DNA of 64,000 bases from an uncultured Gaiellaceae bacterium (GTDB taxonomy: Bacteria; Actinomycetota; Thermoleophilia; Gaiellales; Gaiellaceae): contig CAVTBS010000009.1 of NCBI GenBank assembly GCA_963732995.1, positions 64,618 through 128,617 on the forward strand, in the 5' to 3' direction. Of the stretch, positions 19,038 to 49,429 are shown in pieces. A program made the position numbers and the translations under genes. How positions within the stretch are numbered: the stretch's first letter is position 1; the number at the start of each line of letters is the position of its first letter. The notes under the pieces are model-generated. The model did not search any database. It was not told the DNA's origin and worked only from the letters and a program-made list of their open reading frames with translations.

Positions 19038-19097
19038 TCGCCGGACCGTAAAAGCGCCTGAGCAGGCTTCTTCGCTCCGGCGGCATACTTCAGAGGG

Positions 19098-19788
19098 ATG
19101 AGCAAGCTGCCCCGGACGGACGATCTGCCCCGCACGGGCGCGGGGTACGACGCGGCCCGGGTCGAGGAGGCGTTCAGCGCCTTCGCCGACCGCGTGCACG
19201 AGCTGGAGGTCGTCGCGGGCGAGCTCCGCGCCGAGCTGCAGTCGCTCCGCGCCGAGCGGGCAGCCGCCGCCGCGCGTCGACGACGAGCACTGGCCGGTCG
19301 AGCCCGGCGCGCACCCCTCTCCCGACTGGGTCGCCGCCGTCCCGCCGCCCGTCGTCCGCGGAGTCACGGTCCCGCGGCTCGTGCTCGAAGGCGCTTTCCT
19401 GCTCCTCGTCGCTCTCTTCGCGGGGCTTGCCGATCTCTCGACCGAGTGGATCGTGATCGTGATGGTCGCCGCGTGGGCGCTCGTCGCGGTCTCCGAGTGG
19501 GCCGCGGCCGCCAAGCGCGCCCGCTGGCGCCTGGACGAGATCGCGCCGCCGCTCGCGGCCGAGGCCGCCGACACGACCGGGCCGTGGGACATGCCGGTCG
19601 TCCAGGCGACCGTGGTCGAGTCGGCGCCGGACCCGGAGTCGAAGACGATCGTGACGAAGCTGCCGGCGGAGCTCGCGGCCGAGCCGGAGCCCGCGGCCGA
19701 GCCGGAGGAGGCACCGAAGCGCCGCCGCGGTCTGCGGCGTCGGAAGCAGCCCGCCGAGGCAGGCGCCGCCGATCCCTGGGAGGCGTGA
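19098..19788 (+). pseudogene. DivIVA-domain membrane protein, frame-disrupted as assembled (+1 near 19255-19262)
   Basis: Frame 0 gives MSKLPRTDDLPRTGAGYDAARVEEAFSAFADRVHELE...LRAER, then Arg-rich junk. Frame 1 continues as QPPPRVDDEHWPVEPG...LVLEGAFLLLVALFAG (TM) to stop 19788. Frame 1 has no start before GTG 19381. Confidence 0.6.
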
Positions 19789-23222: not shown

Positions 23223-23315
23223 CGGAGCGGCCCCGGAGTCGAACCGAGCAAGCCGTGGGTTGCACGACCGGGCCGATTTTGAAGACCGGCTGGGCCACCG
23301 GGCCCGTGCCGCTCC
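23223..23315 (-). tRNA. selC: tRNA-Sec (anticodon UCA)
   Basis: Hand-folded. 8-bp acceptor GGAGCGGC/GCCGCTCC plus discriminator G. D-arm GGGCC-CGGT-GGCCC. Anticodon stem GCCGGT/ATCGGC with loop CTTCAAA. 6-bp long variable arm GTCGTG-CAACC-CACGGC. 5-bp T-stem CTCGG/CCGGG with loop TTCGACT. This is the 8/5 Sec architecture. CCA is not encoded. Confidence 0.9.
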
Positions 23316-25195: not shown

Positions 25196-25759
25196 GTGGC
25201 TCACCTCCGTCTCACCGACGTCGACGAGGCCACCGGACCGCTGAAGGACGAGTACGACGCGGCGATCGGGCGTGCCGGCAAGGTCTTCAACATCGTCAAG
25301 GCGATGAGCCCGAACCCGGACGTGCTCCACCGCTCGATGGAGCTCTACAAGGGGATCATGTTCGGGCCCTCGAAGCTCTCTCGCCAGGAGCGCGAACTGC
25401 TTGCGACGGTCGTCTCGCGCGAGAACGAGTGTCATTACTGAACGCGGTCGCATGCAGACGACCTCCGTGCCGAGGGCGCCGACGACGAACTGGTGGACCG
25501 GTGCGCCCACGACTACCGCACCGCCGTCCTGCCTGCGCCTGTGCGCGCGCTCTGCGACTACGCGGCCAAGCTCACGCATGTCCCGACCGCCGTCGGCGCG
25601 GCCGACGTGGAGGAGCTACGCGCGCACGGCTGGGACGACGAGGCGATCCACGACGCGATCCAGGTGATCGCCTACTTCAACTACATCAACCGGATCGCCG
25701 AGGCAGTCGGGATCGGCCCGGAGCCGGAGTGGGAGACAACAGAGCGGGAGGAGCGATGA
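25196..25759 (+). CDS. AhpD/carboxymuconolactone-decarboxylase-family peroxidase-related protein, predicted selenoprotein (UGA 25439-25441 read as Sec)
   Basis: Track ORFs 25196..25441 and 25493..25759 share one frame and are separated only by TGA. Read-through gives ...VSRENECHY-U-TRSHADDLRAEG..., the family C-x-x-C-x-x-x-H signature with U at the second Cys. GC3 bias continues across the gap. tRNA-Sec, selA and selB are nearby. Confidence 0.8.
25442..25468 (+). promoter_or_regulatory. candidate bacterial SECIS hairpin immediately 3' of the in-frame UGA
   Basis: ACG-c-GGUCG-CAUGCAGA-CGACC-uc-CGU. It has a 5-bp upper stem, a 3-bp lower stem with bulges, and an 8-nt apical loop containing G residues 13-20 nt from the UGA. 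Confidence 0.45.
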
Positions 25760-26116
25760 GCGGCTTCACGATCGTGCACATGGACGACTTCGAGCGCCCG
25801 TTCCCGAAGTGGGCGCTCGCGCGCCGCTCGCTCGGGCTCCAGTCGTTCGGGATGAACGTCGTCGAGCTGCCGCCCGGGCGAGACGATCCCCGAGCACGAC
25901 GAGACCGGCAGCGATCAGGAGGAGGTCTTCATCGTCCTCGACGGCGAGGCGACGATGGTGATCGACGGCGAGGATCATCCGGCGCCCGCCGGGACGTTCG
26001 CGCGGCTCGACCCGGAGCCGAAGCGGACGGTCGCCAACCGCAGCGGCGCCCAGGCGACGATCCTGATCGTGTCCGCGCCGCGCACGAGCGGCTACACGCC
26101 GATGGACTGGGCGTGA
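25756..26116 (+). pseudogene. cupin-domain protein, frame-disrupted as assembled (+1 in the CCCGGG run at 25873-25878)
   Basis: ATG 25756 overlaps the AhpD-like stop (ATGA). MSGFTIVHMDDFERPF...VELPPG then continues one frame over as ETIPEHDETGSDQEEVFIVLDGEATMVIDGEDHPAPAGTFARL...MDWA. Its stop overlaps the nitrilase GTG (GTGA). Confidence 0.75.
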
Positions 26117-27463: not shown

Positions 27464-27569
27464 GTCACCAGTGTGGCAGGCAATCGGCTTGTGACGTTCG
27501 ACGCGATTCCCTACTCTGGTTGGAAGCGAAACGGGAGTCGTGCGGCCGGCTCGTTGGAGGTGGATCCTG

Positions 27570-28637
27570 ATGGCCGAGATCGCGCACCCGTACGAGAGCG
27601 CCGCCGAGACGGCCGCCGCTCCGGCTGCGGCACCGCGCCGCAGGGTCTCCTTCTCGGAGCTCGTCGACGCCTGGGCGGTCCGTGAGGGAGGGGACGGCCG
27701 CGAGGAGCGCTACCAGGAGCTGCGCGCGGCGTTCGTCTCGGATCACGGCGAGATCACCGACAGCTACATCTGCGAGAGCGGGCCGATGGCGGTCGTGCTG
27801 ACGGCCGTGCGCCCGAAGCCGCTCGAGCGGAAGCTGTTCCGCTCCAAGGACCGGGTCGAGATGTACAGCGAGACCGAACGGCTCGTGCGGATGCACCCAG
27901 AGGTGGCCCAGGTGCTCCACCGGGCCGAGGTGCAGTACGTCTCGGTGCGGAACGCCCTGCGCGGGCTCAGCCAGCGGCTGCTCGTGAACTGGCTCTTCGT
28001 CTGGATGCGCGACCTGATGCTCGTCTCGATCCCGAACGTCGACGGCACGGTCGTCCCGCTCTCCGCGGAGGAGATCGAGGCGCAGGAGAAGGAGCTCGAC
28101 CGGATCGAGGCCCACTACCAGCAGGCGGCGGCGCGCGAGGCGCAGATCGTCTACCTCGGCGGGATGCTGATGGGCGTGCTCGCCCTCTGCGCGGTCACCG
28201 TTCCCGTCGGGATCCTGCTCGCGGCCAGCAGCGTCCCGGTCAACCTGACCACGTTCTTCGGCTGCCTGATCGCCGGCGCGCTCGGGGCGCTCGTCAGCGT
28301 CGTCACCCGCATGAGCGCCGACAAGTTCCACGTCCGCCACGAGGTCGGGCGCTCGTACGTGCAGCGCGTGGCGGCGTTCCGGCCGTTCATCGGCGGCGTC
28401 TTCGGCCTGCTCGTCTACTTCGCGCTCCAGGGCGGGGTGATCCGGCAGCTCGACGTGCCCGAGGACCCGCGCGACCGCTTCGCGTTCTTCCTCGTCCTCG
28501 CCTTCGCGGCCGGCTTCAGCGAGCGGCTGGTGAAGGAGGTGCTGCGCTCGACGAACGGAGACGACGCCGAGGCTAAGGCGCCGGAGCCGCCGAAGCCCGA
28601 CGCCGCAGCACCCGTGCCTCCCCAACCCGGCGGGTGA
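27570..28637 (+). CDS. hypothetical membrane protein (soluble N-domain plus about 4 C-terminal TM helices)
   Basis: High GC3. Start taken at MAEIAHPYE. TM segments include IVYLGGMLMGVLALCAVTVPVGILLAA and FFGCLIAGALGALVSVV. No family recognised. Confidence 0.6.
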   Translation: MAEIAHPYESAAETAAAPAAAPRRRVSFSELVDAWAVREGGDGREERYQELRAAFVSDHGEITDSYICESGPMAVVLTAVRPKPLERKLFRSKDRVEMYSETERLVRMHPEVAQVLHRAEVQYVSVRNALRGLSQRLLVNWLFVWMRDLMLVSIPNVDGTVVPLSAEEIEAQEKELDRIEAHYQQAAAREAQIVYLGGMLMGVLALCAVTVPVGILLAASSVPVNLTTFFGCLIAGALGALVSVVTRMSADKFHVRHEVGRSYVQRVAAFRPFIGGVFGLLVYFALQGGVIRQLDVPEDPRDRFAFFLVLAFAAGFSERLVKEVLRSTNGDDAEAKAPEPPKPDAAAPVPPQPGG

Positions 28638-30211
28638 CGCCGTCGGCGTCGAGGCGCTCCAGCAGGAGCTGAGCGTCCCGGCGGCCGCAGCCCGCGAGGT
28701 CGCGGAAGCGGGCGAGCGTGATCTGGCCGGCCGCCGCGCACTCCTCGAGCACGAGCGCCCGTGCCCGCTCGTAGGCCGACGCCGAGACCGCCCAGCCGTC
28801 GCCGAGCCGGACGAGCCTGCCCGCGCGCTCGAGGTAGCGGGCCAGCTCCGAATCCTCCGCCCTGGCGGCACCGGGCTCCGCCGCCGCCAGCGCCGCCGCC
28901 AGCTCCTCCGCCTCGGCGGCGCGGTCACCGAGGTCGCCGGTCGTGCCGGGCCGGTAGAGCAGTCGAGCCGCGCCGCTCGAAGGGAAGCCGCGCCAGGACC
29001 TCCTTCGCCCAGGGCTCGGTCGGCGCCGGCGTGCCCGGGTCGAGCGGGTCGGCTCGGTCGATCGCCTGCTCGAGCGCGGCCCGGAGCTCGGCCAGCCACT
29101 CGTCCGAGAAGCGCCACGCGCCGTCGACGAGCGCCGGTGCATGGACACGCGTCTCGCCGCGGCGCGCCTGCTCGAAGCGGGCCGGGTCGGAGTGCCGGAC
29201 GGGGACGGGGTCGAGCACGGTCCCACCGCCGACCGTCGTCTCGTCGCGGAGCACGACCCGGTCGCCGCGCGCGGCGACGACAGGCGCTGCGAGTCGCAGC
29301 TGGGCGAAGCCGCCCGCCCTGACGACGCGGGCGGGCACGGCGGCAGTGCCGTGGTGGACGTGGAGGCGCGCTCCCTCGGCGATCGGTGTCAGCTCCTCCA
29401 GCGTCACGTCCAGGCGGTAGCTCGGCCTGAAGGTTTCGGGGGCGACGAGCACGTCGCCGCGCCGCAGGTCGGTGCGGTCGACCCCCGGCAGCGCGAGCGC
29501 GACGCGCTGCCCCGGCTCCGCCCGCTCGACGGCCCGGTCGTGCACCTGGACGCTCCGGACTCGGACGTCGCGACCGGCGGGCTCGGCGCGAAGCACATCG
29601 CCCTCGCCGACGGTCCCGGACCAGAGCGTCCCGGTCGCGACCGTCCCGATCCCGCGCAGTGAGAAGACCCGGTCGACGTGGAGGCGCGCCGGCTCGGAGA
29701 GATAGTTGCTGTCAGCAACTAAGTCCGCAGCGCGCGTGAGCGCAGCACGGAGCTCGTCGAGCCCGACGCCGGTCTTCGCGCTCACCGGAACGGCCTCGGC
29801 CTCCGGGACGAGCTCCGCCGCCTCCTCGAGCGCCAGCGCGAGCGTCTCCTCGTCGACCGCATCGGACTTCGTCACCGCGACCACGCCGTGCTCGATCCCG
29901 AGCAGGCGGATGATCGCGAGGTGCTCGTGCGTCTGCGGCCGCGCGCCCTCGCCGGCATCGATCACGAGCAGGAAGAGGTCGATCCCCGTCGCCCCGGCGA
30001 CCATGTTGCGGACGAAGCGCTCGTGCCCCGGCACGTCGACCAGCGAGAGCCGCTGCCCGTCCGGCAGGTCGAGCGGGGCGTAGCCGAGGTCGATCGAGAT
30101 CCCGCGCCGCTGCTCCTCGGGGAGTCGGTCGGTGTCCTTCCCGGTCAGTGCCCGCACGAGCCACGTCTTGCCGTGGTCGATGTGCCCGGCGGTTCCTACC
30201 GTAAGCGGCAT
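28573..30211 (-). pseudogene. selB: selenocysteine-specific elongation factor SelB, frame-disrupted as assembled (1 extra nt near 28960-28980)
   Basis: [16 protein letters not shown]...DVPGHERF...TKSD GTPase domain and domains II-III lie in ORF 28925..30322. The winged-helix C-terminus (LLYRPGTTGDL...ITLARFRDLAGCGRRDAQLLLERLDADGVTRRVGE) lies in ORF 28573..29226. Total span is 3n+1 nt. Confidence 0.85.
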
Positions 30212-30363: not shown

Positions 30364-31638
30364 TCACGCCAATCTGACTCGAGCGACCGCCCGGGCGACC
30401 TCGTCGGCCTCGGCGTCGGTGAGGGTGCGGCAGTCGAGCAGCGTGCGGCCGTCGCGGACGACGGCGATCACCGGCGGGTCATGGGCGCGCAGCGGCGCCG
30501 CCAGCTCCTCGGCGACCGAGCAGGCGAAGCTCGGCAGCTCGGCGAGCGGGAGGGCGCCGCCGCCGACGCGGGCAACCGTCTCCTCGACGGCGCCGTCCGC
30601 CGCCCGCGCAAGGCGCTCCGCGCGGTCCCGGACGGCGTCGACCGGCTCGCGCAGCATCCGCAGCACCGGGATCTCGTCCGGCGAGTCGAGATAGAGGAGC
30701 AGCGTGCCCTCGAGCGCCGCGAGCGTCAGCTTGTCCGAGCGCAGGGCGCGATGGAGCGGGTGCCGGCGCAGCCGCTCGATCAGATCGGCGCGGCCGGCGA
30801 CGATGCCCGCCTGCGGGCCGCCGAGGAGCTTGTCGCCCGAGAAGCAGACGAGGTCGGCGCCCGCCGCGAGGGCGGCAGCAGGCGTCGGCTCGCCGTCGAC
30901 GTCGACGAGCGCGCCGGAGCCGAGGTCGTCGAGGAGCGGCAGCTCGTGGCGGCGCGCGACGGCCGCGAGCTCGTCGAGGCGCGGCTGCTCGGTGAAGCCG
31001 ACGACGCGGAAGTTCGACTGGTGGACGCGCAGGAGCAGCGCCGTGTCCGGCCCGACCGCGTGCTCGTAGTCGGCGGCGCGGGTCCGGTTCGTCGTCCCCA
31101 CCTCGACGAGCCGGGCTCCGGAGCGGACGAGCACGTCGGGGATCCGGAATCCGTCGCCGATCTCGATCAGCTCGCCGCGCGAGACGACGACCTCACGCCC
31201 CTCCGCGAGCGCGGCGAGCGCCAGCAGCATCGCCGCAGCGTTGTTGTTGACGACGATCGCATCCTGTGCGCCCGTGAGCCGGCGCAGCAACGGCGCCAGA
31301 TGGTCCTGGCGGGAGCCGCGTGAGCCCGAGGAGAGGTCGTACTCGAGGTTGGAGTAACCGCTCGTGTCGGCGATCCGTTCGAGCGCGGCCGCGGCGAGCG
31401 GCGCGCGGCCGAGGTTCGTGTGCACGAGCACGCCGGTCGCGTTCAGGACCCGGCGGAGCGCCGGCCGCCGTGCCGTGGCGAGCGCCTGCTCGAGCCGCAC
31501 CCGCAGGTCGCCGGGCTCGGCGCCCGCCCGGATCTCCTCGCGCGCCCGCTCGAGCACGTCCCGGGCGGCCGCGACCGCGAGCGGGTCGGCGGTGCCGCGA
31601 ACGAGCTCGTCGACGGAGGGAAGATCCTGCAATCTCAC
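30364..31638 (-). CDS. selA: L-seryl-tRNA(Sec) selenium transferase SelA
   Basis: LPSVDELV N-terminus, [46 protein letters not shown] and [13 protein letters not shown] (PLP Lys). GTG 31638 is preferred because ATG 31704 would overlap the divergent VanW gene. Confidence 0.92.
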
Positions 31639-31681
31639 GGAAAACGAGTGTAGTCCGGCCGGAGCCGCTACCTTGCCAATC

Positions 31682-33361
31682 GTGAGACGTGTGGGGGTGA
31701 TCACGGCGTCGGTGCTCGCGATCGCGGCCGTTCTGGCCGTCGCCGCGGTGGGTGCGCGCGACGCGTACTACTGGGACCGGCCGCTGCCCGGCGTCGAGCT
31801 GCGCGAGGCCGGCCTGCAGGAGCCCGTGCGCATCGTCGTCGGTGAGCGGGAGTACGACGTCCGGCCGGGCGAGGTCCTCAGCCTCGACAGCACGGCGACC
31901 GAGCAGGCGCTCTGGGACGCCGGCCGCACCAGCTTCACCGGCCGGATCCGGCAGCTCGTCGACCCGAGCCCGCCGAAGCTCGTCGTCGATCCGGTGCTCG
32001 AGACGCGGCCCGGGGCCGACCAGATCGCGGAGGAGATCTCCGCCTCGCTGCCGAAGCCGCGGCGGGCCCAGGTCGTTGCGCGTGACGGCTTCCGCGTGAT
32101 TCCGTCCCGCCCGGGTGACGCGATCGCCCCGACCCAGCTCGCCGACTCGCTCGCGCAGGCCTCGCTGACGGGCGTGCGGACGCTGCGCCCGGCGCTGACC
32201 CACGTCGATCCCGAGCTCACGACTGCCGCCGCCGAAGCCGCCGTCGACGAGGCGGAGGAACTGGTCGACGAGCCGGTGACGCTCGAGTTCAAGGGTGAGG
32301 ACGTCGGCGCGCTGGCTCCCGCGCGGCTCGTCAAGCTGCTCCGGTTCCGGCCCGCCGGCGAGCGCTTCCGCGTCTCCTTCCATCCCGAGCGCATGGCCAA
32401 GGCGGTCGAGCCGATGCTGAAGCCGTGGCGAGCCCGAGCCGTCAATGCCCGCTTCGTCGTCGACGGGAGGCAGGTGCGGATCCGGCCGTCGCGTCCGGGT
32501 CTCGCCGTCGACGGCCGGTGGGTCGCCGACTCCGTCGCGGCCGCCGCGGCCGCGCCGACGCATCGTGCCTCGCTGCGGCTGAAGCAGATCCGCGCCGACC
32601 TGACCACCCGCGAGGCCGAGCGCCTCGGGATCCGCGAGCGCATCTCCACCTTCACGACCGACATGGGCACGTCGTCGTCGAACCGGATCCACAACGTGCA
32701 GCTGATGGCGCAGTACATCGACGGCACGGTGATCAAGCCCGGCGACACGTTCTCGTTCAACGACCGCGTCGGTCCCCGGACGGTCGAGCGAGGCTTCCGC
32801 GAGGGTCAGATGATCATCGGCTCGCTCCTCCTGCCCTCGATCGGCGGCGGCGTTTGCCAGACCGCGACGACGCTCTTCAACAACGCCTTCGAGCTCGGGC
32901 TGCCGATCGTCGAGCGCCACAACCACAGCTTCTACATCTCGCACTACCCGATGGGCCGCGACGCCACCGTCTCGTGGGGCGGGCCGGACTTCGTCTTCAA
33001 GAACGACCTGAAGACCGGGATCCTGATCACGACGAGCTACACCAGCTCGACGCTCACGTTCTCGTTCTTCGGCACCGACCCGGGGCGGCGCATCGTCGCG
33101 ACGACGGGCGAGCGGTCGAACTGGCGCTCGCCGCAGACGACCTACGCGCTCGACCCGTACGCACCGCGCGGATCGGTGCGCACGGTCGCCGGCTCGAACC
33201 AGTCAGGCTTCGACGTCACCGTCACCCGCAAGGTCTTCGAGGACGGGAAGCTGCTGCGCCAGGACGCGACGACGAGCAACTACATCGCCGTCGGCCCGAC
33301 CGCGATCTACGGCCCGGGCCGCTCGATCCCCGGCCCGTACTTCGTCCTGCCGCGGGTCTAG
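31682..33361 (+). CDS. VanW family protein
   Basis: N-terminal TM. C-terminal motifs GTVIKPGDTFSFNDRVGPRTVERGF...GGGVCQTATTLFNA...ERHNHSFYISHYP. Start is GTG 31682. Confidence 0.88.
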   Translation: MRRVGVITASVLAIAAVLAVAAVGARDAYYWDRPLPGVELREAGLQEPVRIVVGEREYDVRPGEVLSLDSTATEQALWDAGRTSFTGRIRQLVDPSPPKLVVDPVLETRPGADQIAEEISASLPKPRRAQVVARDGFRVIPSRPGDAIAPTQLADSLAQASLTGVRTLRPALTHVDPELTTAAAEAAVDEAEELVDEPVTLEFKGEDVGALAPARLVKLLRFRPAGERFRVSFHPERMAKAVEPMLKPWRARAVNARFVVDGRQVRIRPSRPGLAVDGRWVADSVAAAAAAPTHRASLRLKQIRADLTTREAERLGIRERISTFTTDMGTSSSNRIHNVQLMAQYIDGTVIKPGDTFSFNDRVGPRTVERGFREGQMIIGSLLLPSIGGGVCQTATTLFNNAFELGLPIVERHNHSFYISHYPMGRDATVSWGGPDFVFKNDLKTGILITTSYTSSTLTFSFFGTDPGRRIVATTGERSNWRSPQTTYALDPYAPRGSVRTVAGSNQSGFDVTVTRKVFEDGKLLRQDATTSNYIAVGPTAIYGPGRSIPGPYFVLPRV

Positions 33362-46981: not shown

Positions 46982-47065
<84 letters not shown>

Positions 47066-48796: not shown

Positions 48797-48983
48797 TGGG
48801 CGTCGCCTCCTTCAACCGCACCCTCGACCAGGAGCTGGCGGCGATCGCGCGCGGCGCCAGCTACGAGTGCCTCGTCTGCGGCGAGTTCCTGCTCCGCCGG
48901 CCGGTCGCCCACGCGTGCCTGGAATGCGGGACGCTGCTCTGCGACGGCCTGCAGATCCCGGAATCCGAGCTAGAATTCGTCTC

Positions 48984-48996
<13 letters not shown>
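48796..48996 (+). CDS. small zinc-ribbon-like protein translationally coupled to lexA (66 aa)
   Basis: The start ATG overlaps the lexA TGA stop by one base (TGATG). High GC3. CLVCG...CLECG...C cysteine pairs. The last 13 nt or so overlap the predicted rnpB 5' end. Confidence 0.55.
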
Positions 48997-49333
<337 letters not shown>

Positions 49334-49429
49334 TGACGGAGAGCCCCGCACCGCGGGGCTCTCCCATTTCCGCGACCGTGAGGGCGGGTCGACGAGCGCC
49401 GCAAGGGCGAATCGCGCGAAAGTGTGCGC

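Follow-up and report, generated by a model that had tools for sequence, protein, structure and literature searches.

The gene at 25196-25759 of the window, i.e. of the whole stretch of 64,000 nucleotides that was analysed, most probably encodes a selenocysteine-containing AhpD-like protein of the COG2128/TIGR01926 type, with a predicted activity as a thiol-selenol oxidoreductase. We assign this reading a probability of roughly 85%. An earlier note on the same DNA had proposed an unannotated selenoprotein of the AhpD/CMD family at this place, and the proposal gains support from the conservation of the in-frame TGA, from a hairpin downstream of it and from the adjacent genes for tRNA-Sec, SelA and SelB.

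The reading frame across the UGA codon

25196-25759 (+): gene for the predicted AhpD-like (TIGR01926 peroxidase-related) selenoprotein; GTG start, 187 codons, terminal stop TGA
25394-25396 (+): codon for Glu67, the putative relay glutamate 12 residues before Cys79
25430-25432 (+): codon for Cys79, first Cys of the motif
25439-25441 (+): UGA, predicted to be read as selenocysteine (Sec), residue 82, in the motif C79-H-Y-U82-T-R-S-H86
25451-25453 (+): codon for His86, four residues after U82

The ORF listing of this locus consists of two pieces, 25196..25441 and 25493..25759. Both belong to the same forward frame, which is interrupted only once, by the TGA at 25439-25441, just as the earlier note had described, and translation through this codon yields the 187-aa product it had predicted, reading ...SRENECHY*TRSHADDLRAEG... 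around the interruption. The high GC content at third codon positions, which was also said to persist past the TGA, amounts to 0.88 in the 40 codons 5' of it and to 0.85 in the 40 codons 3' of it. Within the 64 kb, one further in-frame TGA has coding signal on both flanks (32808, minus strand). It runs antisense to a VanW gene and is not credible as a second recoded codon.

Related loci were searched in one genome per GTDB species; 80 loci were returned, 79 of which could be typed at the UGA column. The closest come from Gaiellaceae and other Thermoleophilia MAGs with identities of up to 78%, the others from Acidimicrobiia, Acidobacteriota, Planctomycetota, Chloroflexota, Gemmatimonadota, Latescibacterota and further groups, so that at least eight phyla are represented. 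A TGA is present at exactly this codon column in 78 of the 79 typed loci; in the remaining one the codon is TGC and the first Cys is lost. Neither TAA nor TAG was found at the column in any of the 79, a pattern far beyond chance. The case that the earlier note had named against its own proposal, an ordinary stop in close relatives, is thus absent from these loci, and the comparison of Sec and Cys orthologues which it had recommended gives TGA throughout this set save for the one locus and Cys in more distant homologues.

These data bear on the simplest alternative, namely that the TGA is an ordinary stop codon or a nonsense mutation and that the locus consists of two small independent genes or of a pseudogene. 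Standard ORF calling does give two fragments, the second of which could begin at the GTG at 25493. However, TGA, and never TAA or TAG, recurs in the same column of 78 loci across phyla; the 17 codons between the TGA and position 25493 are conserved both as protein and as RNA; the homologues are single proteins of 180-190 aa; and the modelled fold described below requires both halves. We consider this alternative to have next to no probability. Judged by its sequence, the locus is a single gene and not two.

The position of the UGA within the protein was assessed in an alignment of the query and 21 homologues. Full-length proteins at a greater distance have Cys in the UGA column (as CHYC, CGYC, CYYC or CLYC), for instance P0022, P0024, P0038, P0046, P0076 and others, and so do the relatives of known structure in the PDB; otherwise the column holds X, or W in closer, JGI-predicted proteins whose TGA was translated with another code table. 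Glu67 and His86 are invariant in the alignment. The UGA hence occupies the place of the second Cys of the CxxC motif and the downstream His is retained, both as the earlier note had suggested. Ser is present at the Sec column in homologues P0026 and P0049 and Arg in P0031. In locus L056 and in proteins P0022, P0024, P0027 and P0033 the motif reads S-T-R-Y-C, with Thr replacing the first Cys of CxxC; Cys-bearing close relatives that lack the first Cys are therefore single-Cys variants and not simple Sec-to-Cys exchanges.

The W entries could also be taken to mean that UGA is reassigned in this organism to Trp or Gly (genetic codes 4 or 25). Against this, TGA terminates 9 of the 21 well-supported genes of the window, including the gene under study at its own end; it is thus an ordinary terminator here, which excludes a reassigned code. 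The W entries stem from contigs of only about 1 kb, and genes for tRNA-Sec, SelA and SelB lie beside the gene. Reassignment is accordingly a reading to which we give virtually no weight. Among the JGI proteins, P0001-P0020 are full-length homologues from such contigs of about 1 kb whose deposited sequences show Trp where Sec is expected. Apparently, the gene caller chose a code table with UGA = Trp for these short contigs, by which selenoproteins become hidden as ordinary proteins. Other public protein sets hold N-terminal pieces that end in ...CHY and C-terminal pieces that begin right after the UGA, and one 103-aa NCBI MAG entry among the homologues is labelled 'peroxidase-related enzyme'. 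That gene callers would split such copies had been foreseen, and it is reflected in these many fragment entries.

Profile searches were run on the read-through product with Cys put at the stop position. The product matches TIGR01926 with 155.9 bits (cutoff 81.8), residues 3-178 of the protein corresponding to positions 2-178 of the 178 positions of the model, and PF02627 (CMD) with an E-value of 1.9e-13. The HMM check proposed by the earlier note thereby places the protein in the AhpD/CMD family. AhpD sensu stricto (TIGR00777) is matched with only 22.8 bits, far below its cutoff of 191.95. Among solved structures, 2pfx (2.8e-29) and 6k40 (1.3e-26) are the closest in sequence, both with Cys opposite the UGA. 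AlphaFold models the read-through product with confidence as one all-helical domain (pLDDT 94.4, pTM 0.89) that superposes on 2pfx, 6k40, 2oyo and 2prr with TM scores of 0.87-0.88 over about 178 residues. In this model the fold is a single AhpD-like domain which spans both sides of the UGA; since the UGA falls in mid-domain, an 81-aa product would be without most of the predicted fold. All features of TIGR01926/COG2128 membership that could be tested are present: the score, the catalytic set of residues and the predicted fold.

In Pseudomonas aeruginosa PA0269 a proton relay comprises Glu36, Cys48, Tyr50, Cys51 and His55, and in Mycobacterium tuberculosis AhpD it comprises Glu118, Cys130, (His132), Cys133 and His137 (PMC3141380). 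The spacing of Glu67, Cys79, Tyr81, Sec82 and His86 equals that of both relays. In the M. tuberculosis enzyme the cross-link to AhpC is formed by Cys133, Cys130 being partly buried (PMC6626918). Since the attack on AhpC comes from the second Cys in this protein, the predicted Sec82 takes the position of the nucleophile and not that of the resolving Cys, to which the earlier note had assigned it.

The hairpin downstream of the UGA codon

25459-25478 (+): SECIS-like hairpin, 17 nt after the UGA, with one A x G mismatch (25461/25476)
25459-25465 (+): 5' arm CGACCUC
25466-25471 (+): loop CGUGCC; 24 nt between the UGA and the loop
25472-25478 (+): 3' arm GAGGGCG

The prototype bacterial SECIS is that of Escherichia coli fdhF. 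In the present gene the candidate for such an element is a hairpin at 25459-25478, in which, numbered from the U of the UGA, C20-C26 pair with G33-G39. Codons 88-94 (GAC GAC CTC CGT GCN GAG GGC) are without any synonymous change in 28 Gaiellales-type sequences that share just 62-78% protein identity, the third base of Ala92 being the only variable base. Leu is encoded by CTC and Arg by CGT in 28/28 of these sequences, and CGT is otherwise rare in the same genes. The A x G mismatch between 25461 and 25476 is typical of the Gaiellales-type clade.

Across the 79 sequences 87.5% of cells pair in this hairpin, compared with 27-45% in slid controls in which the partner was shifted by 1-3 columns. 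Compensatory changes are present in five of the seven pairs, e.g. C-G to U-A in 8 sequences, and none of 500 shuffles matched the observed pairing and covariation. For the Gaiellales subset the hairpin is the sole consensus structure predicted by RNAalifold. By these comparisons the hairpin at 25459-25478 is under selection at the RNA level, and its identification as the recoding signal (SECIS) is supported.

According to published rules, a bacterial SECIS has a loop of 3-9 nt with G in loop position 1 or 2 followed by G or U, an upper stem of at least 4 bp, a distance of 16-37 nt between UGA and loop, and an energy limit of -7.5 kcal/mol (PMC13188914). The hairpin conforms to these rules in loop size, in the order G then U of the loop, in a stem of at least 4 bp and in its 24-nt spacing. 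It resembles the consensus of the bSECISearch model in being an in-ORF hairpin just after the UGA with a 6-nt loop and G at position 2 followed by U; it differs in the energy of its core, which at -6.5 kcal/mol is weaker than the limit of -7.5 kcal/mol. A value of -12.7 kcal/mol is reached when the non-conserved lower stem is included and the core is enforced. In the window sequence the core energy is no better than that of shuffles, and the unconstrained minimum-energy fold favours other pairings. Folding of single sequences is uninformative for DNA of 71% GC (z-scores of +0.5 to -0.9). No SECIS family of Rfam was matched within 25350-25600 at E-values up to 10; Rfam apparently holds no general bacterial SECIS model. 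When the rest of the window was scanned with the pattern of the hairpin core, only matches with one mismatch were obtained, none of them beside an in-frame TGA.

The unconstrained fold leads to a different candidate. The earlier note had pointed to a stem-loop at 25442-25468, directly behind the UGA; this structure does form (-8.1 kcal/mol), but it is no better than shuffles and it is not conserved. The corresponding alternative is that the working SECIS is the stem immediately after the UGA, with 25446-25450 pairing with 25459-25463. At -7.3 to -8.1 kcal/mol this stem is slightly more stable than the core of the conserved hairpin, and it belongs to the unconstrained minimum-energy fold. Yet only 55.9% of its cells pair, all five pairs are complete in just 2 of 79 sequences, and it lies outside the bSECIS model, with a loop that starts 9 nt from the UGA and has no G in its first two positions. 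Its 3' arm and the 5' arm of the conserved hairpin share bases, so that only one of the two structures can form at a time. The stem next to the UGA is hence rejected as the SECIS, and we regard it as a quite improbable alternative to the hairpin at 25459-25478.

A third hairpin, at +12..+30, was considered as a general element and dismissed, as 59% of its cells pair, no better than in shuffles. In a subclade of Acidobacteriota/Terriglobia, comprising loci L028, L035, L050, L057, L069, L074 and L080 with the motif U-x-E-A-H-G-E-D-L-R, the 3' arm of the common hairpin is lost. The same seven loci have a hairpin of 7-8 bp at +12..+30, CACGGRGA[GGA]UCUCCGUG, which re-uses the UCUCCGUG segment and would put the SECIS about 7 nt nearer to the UGA. 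That seven loci which lose the one hairpin gain another from the same segment argues for selection on the structure and not on the peptide alone.

Selenocysteine genes of the neighbourhood and the selB frameshift

23223-23315 (-): tRNA-Sec gene (selC), anticodon UCA; found by ARAGORN, Rfam RF01852 55.6 bits (gathering threshold 47)
25756-26116 (+): cupin gene, with a Cupin_2 domain in the frame of 25856-26116
28573-30211 (-): selB, Sec-specific elongation factor; TIGR00475 341.5 bits; begins about 3.1 kb downstream of the selenoprotein gene
30364-31704 (-): selA, selenocysteine synthase; PF03841 5.3e-128, TIGR00474 507.9 bits (cutoff 267.9)

The genes for tRNA-Sec, SelA and SelB, which the earlier note had placed in the vicinity, were all located at the positions listed, on the minus strand. 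The tRNA-Sec gene occupies the same relative place, upstream, in 10 Gaiellales-type loci, and selB-selA follow downstream in 13. The order tRNA-Sec ... ahpD-like(U) ... selB-selA was recorded for L001-L005, L007, L008, L010-L012, L014, L017 and L020, and in the planctomycete locus L040 selB adjoins the ahpD-like gene, too. The ATG of the cupin gene overlaps the stop codon of the selenoprotein gene (ATGA, 25756-25759), which suggests that the two probably form one operon. No ahpC was identified among the neighbouring genes scanned, so that the context lends no support to a role in the reduction of AhpC. Convergent with selB lies an ORF of 380 aa (27495-28637, plus strand) with a GC3 of 0.93 and a strong coding signal; it has no Pfam or NCBIfam match and is conserved in L001 and L002 with about 65% identity. 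Elsewhere in the window, a bacterial class A RNase P RNA is present at 48981-49340 (+; 276.8 bits) and a tRNA-Leu(GAG) at 46982-47065 (+).

In the window, a one-base insertion near 28961 breaks selB into two frames, a defect that the earlier note does not mention. The frame 30211..28925 encodes domains I-III of SelB and stops after '...LPFERRGS', and the C-terminal winged-helix part that binds the SECIS continues in the next frame at about 28959..28573. The TIGR00475 match accordingly covers only positions 2-344 of the 581 of the model. Orthologues run 123-131 aa past the stop of the window and are contiguous in L001, L002, L003, L011, L014 and others; searches by tblastn with SelB of L001, L002 and L003 place the frame switch between 28964 and 28959, and DNA alignment reveals one extra base in the selB of the window, outside homopolymer runs. 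The repaired SelB has 545 aa with SelB-wing_3 at residues 491-535 (48.8 bits). A naturally short form of SelB is ruled out, as the missing C-terminus is present in the next frame and is contiguous in orthologues.

If the frameshift in selB is real, UGA82 is undecodable in this organism. The locus would then be a selenoprotein gene by descent in which Sec decoding is dead, only the 81-aa fragment would be made, and the lineage would be just beginning to lose the Sec trait. The insertion separates SelB-wing_3 from domains I-III and does not lie in a homopolymer run, and selD was not seen in the window, as would fit such a loss. On the other hand, the cupin gene next to the selenoprotein gene, 3 kb from selB, is frameshifted as well, near 25874-25878, where its CCCGGG run holds one base more than that of L001, L002 and L003, whose cupin ORFs align to the window in two frames; and the loci of related long-read MAGs give split matches of selB, selA and nitrilase. 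Both observations are typical of assembly indels, which we judge to be the likelier cause on their account. Moreover, the selenoprotein gene, the hairpin, the tRNA-Sec gene and selA are free of decay, and both halves of selB are well conserved (65-79% identity to orthologues). The selB frameshift is thus probably an assembly indel and dead decoding is unlikely, although the window might additionally capture a lineage with a freshly broken selB. As to selD, neither the window nor the related loci gave a match by tblastn with an approximate E. coli SelD query; the gene may lie elsewhere in the genome. Separately, the alignment of an L003 ORF to 19095-19656 of the window changes frame between 19247 and 19282, which may point to a third indel; DNA alignment of 19250-19280 did not place it.

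Proposed mechanism and relation to known selenoproteins

With an intact SelB, synthesis and action of the predicted selenoprotein can be pictured as follows. SelB carrying Sec-tRNA(Sec) would bind the apical part of the hairpin at 25459-25478 via its C-terminal winged helix and would compete with release factor 2 to insert Sec at UGA82. Once the protein is complete, a relay of Glu67, His86 and a water molecule would activate Sec82, which could then attack a peroxide or, alternatively, a partner peroxiredoxin at its oxidised Cys. The intermediate would be resolved by Cys79 under formation of a selenenylsulfide, and this would be recycled by a cellular reductant. Sec in place of Cys would provide a nucleophile that is more reactive and resistant to over-oxidation.

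AhpD-like selenoproteins were known before, as the earlier note had remarked. An AhpD-like protein (COG2128) with a CxxU motif was described by Zhang, Fomenko and Gladyshev in 2005 as a new selenoprotein family with 27 sequences from the Sargasso Sea (PMC1088965); in the GOS data of 2008, AhpD-like 1 was the fourth most abundant selenoprotein family with 299 sequences (PMC2398784); and a 2026 review tabulates the family under TIGR01926, with CxxU as its motif (PMC13188914). The protein of the window shares with this family (COG2128 YciW/TIGR01926) the full-length HMM match, CxxU with Sec in second place, a putative SECIS within the coding region and widespread Cys homologues. It differs in its origin from a high-GC, Gaiellales-like soil actinobacterium and not from marine plankton, and in its location inside a sel gene cluster; neither difference is categorical. 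The accounts of the family cited here, including that of PMC13188914, do not name the Gaiellales-type lineage.

Deinococcus radiodurans has an AhpD-like protein of the same COG (COG2128), DR1765 (PDB 6K40). It is matched with 1.3e-26 over residues 9-181, has the motif C-x-Y-C-x-x-x-H and carries Cys at the position where the window protein has its predicted Sec; its fold and the model of the window protein agree with a TM score of 0.88, an rmsd of 1.9 A and 37% identity. A DR1765 mutant is sensitive to H2O2, and complementation needs the CxxC motif (PMC8945050). AhpD of M. tuberculosis (Rv2429) has the same Glu / Cys-x-x-Cys / His relay with identical spacing (PMC3141380) but differs from the window protein in chain topology and size. 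Finally, the NF041238 family (AhpD_rel_CFYUT (seleno)protein) also belongs to the AhpD superfamily, and its motif C-F-Y-U-T resembles the C-H-Y-U-T of the window; its model, however, has 357 positions, of which the window protein matches only 157-342, i.e. the C-terminal half. With 68.6 bits against a cutoff of 175, the window protein is not a member of this family.

The gene of the window is therefore a further copy of the known AhpD-like selenoprotein family and does not change what is known of selenoproteins. Its main value lies in annotation, since this gene, like dozens of its orthologues in public MAGs, is recorded either in two fragments or with W in place of Sec. The redox inventories of Gaiellales, Acidimicrobiia, Acidobacteriota and Planctomycetota consequently under-count a widespread selenoenzyme. 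Further members of the family could be recovered by means of the signature GACCUC-CGKGNN-GAGGUC, which begins 20 nt from the U of the UGA. Note that in the Gaiellales type the Sec machinery (tRNA-Sec, selB and selA) is physically grouped around the AhpD-like gene. From this grouping we tentatively raise the idea, doubtful as it is, that the enzyme may be the main or even the only reason why the Sec trait is kept in these aerobic soil bacteria. If true, such a role of an AhpD-like enzyme would differ from the published view, which ascribes maintenance of the trait to FdhA or SelD (PMC1794560).
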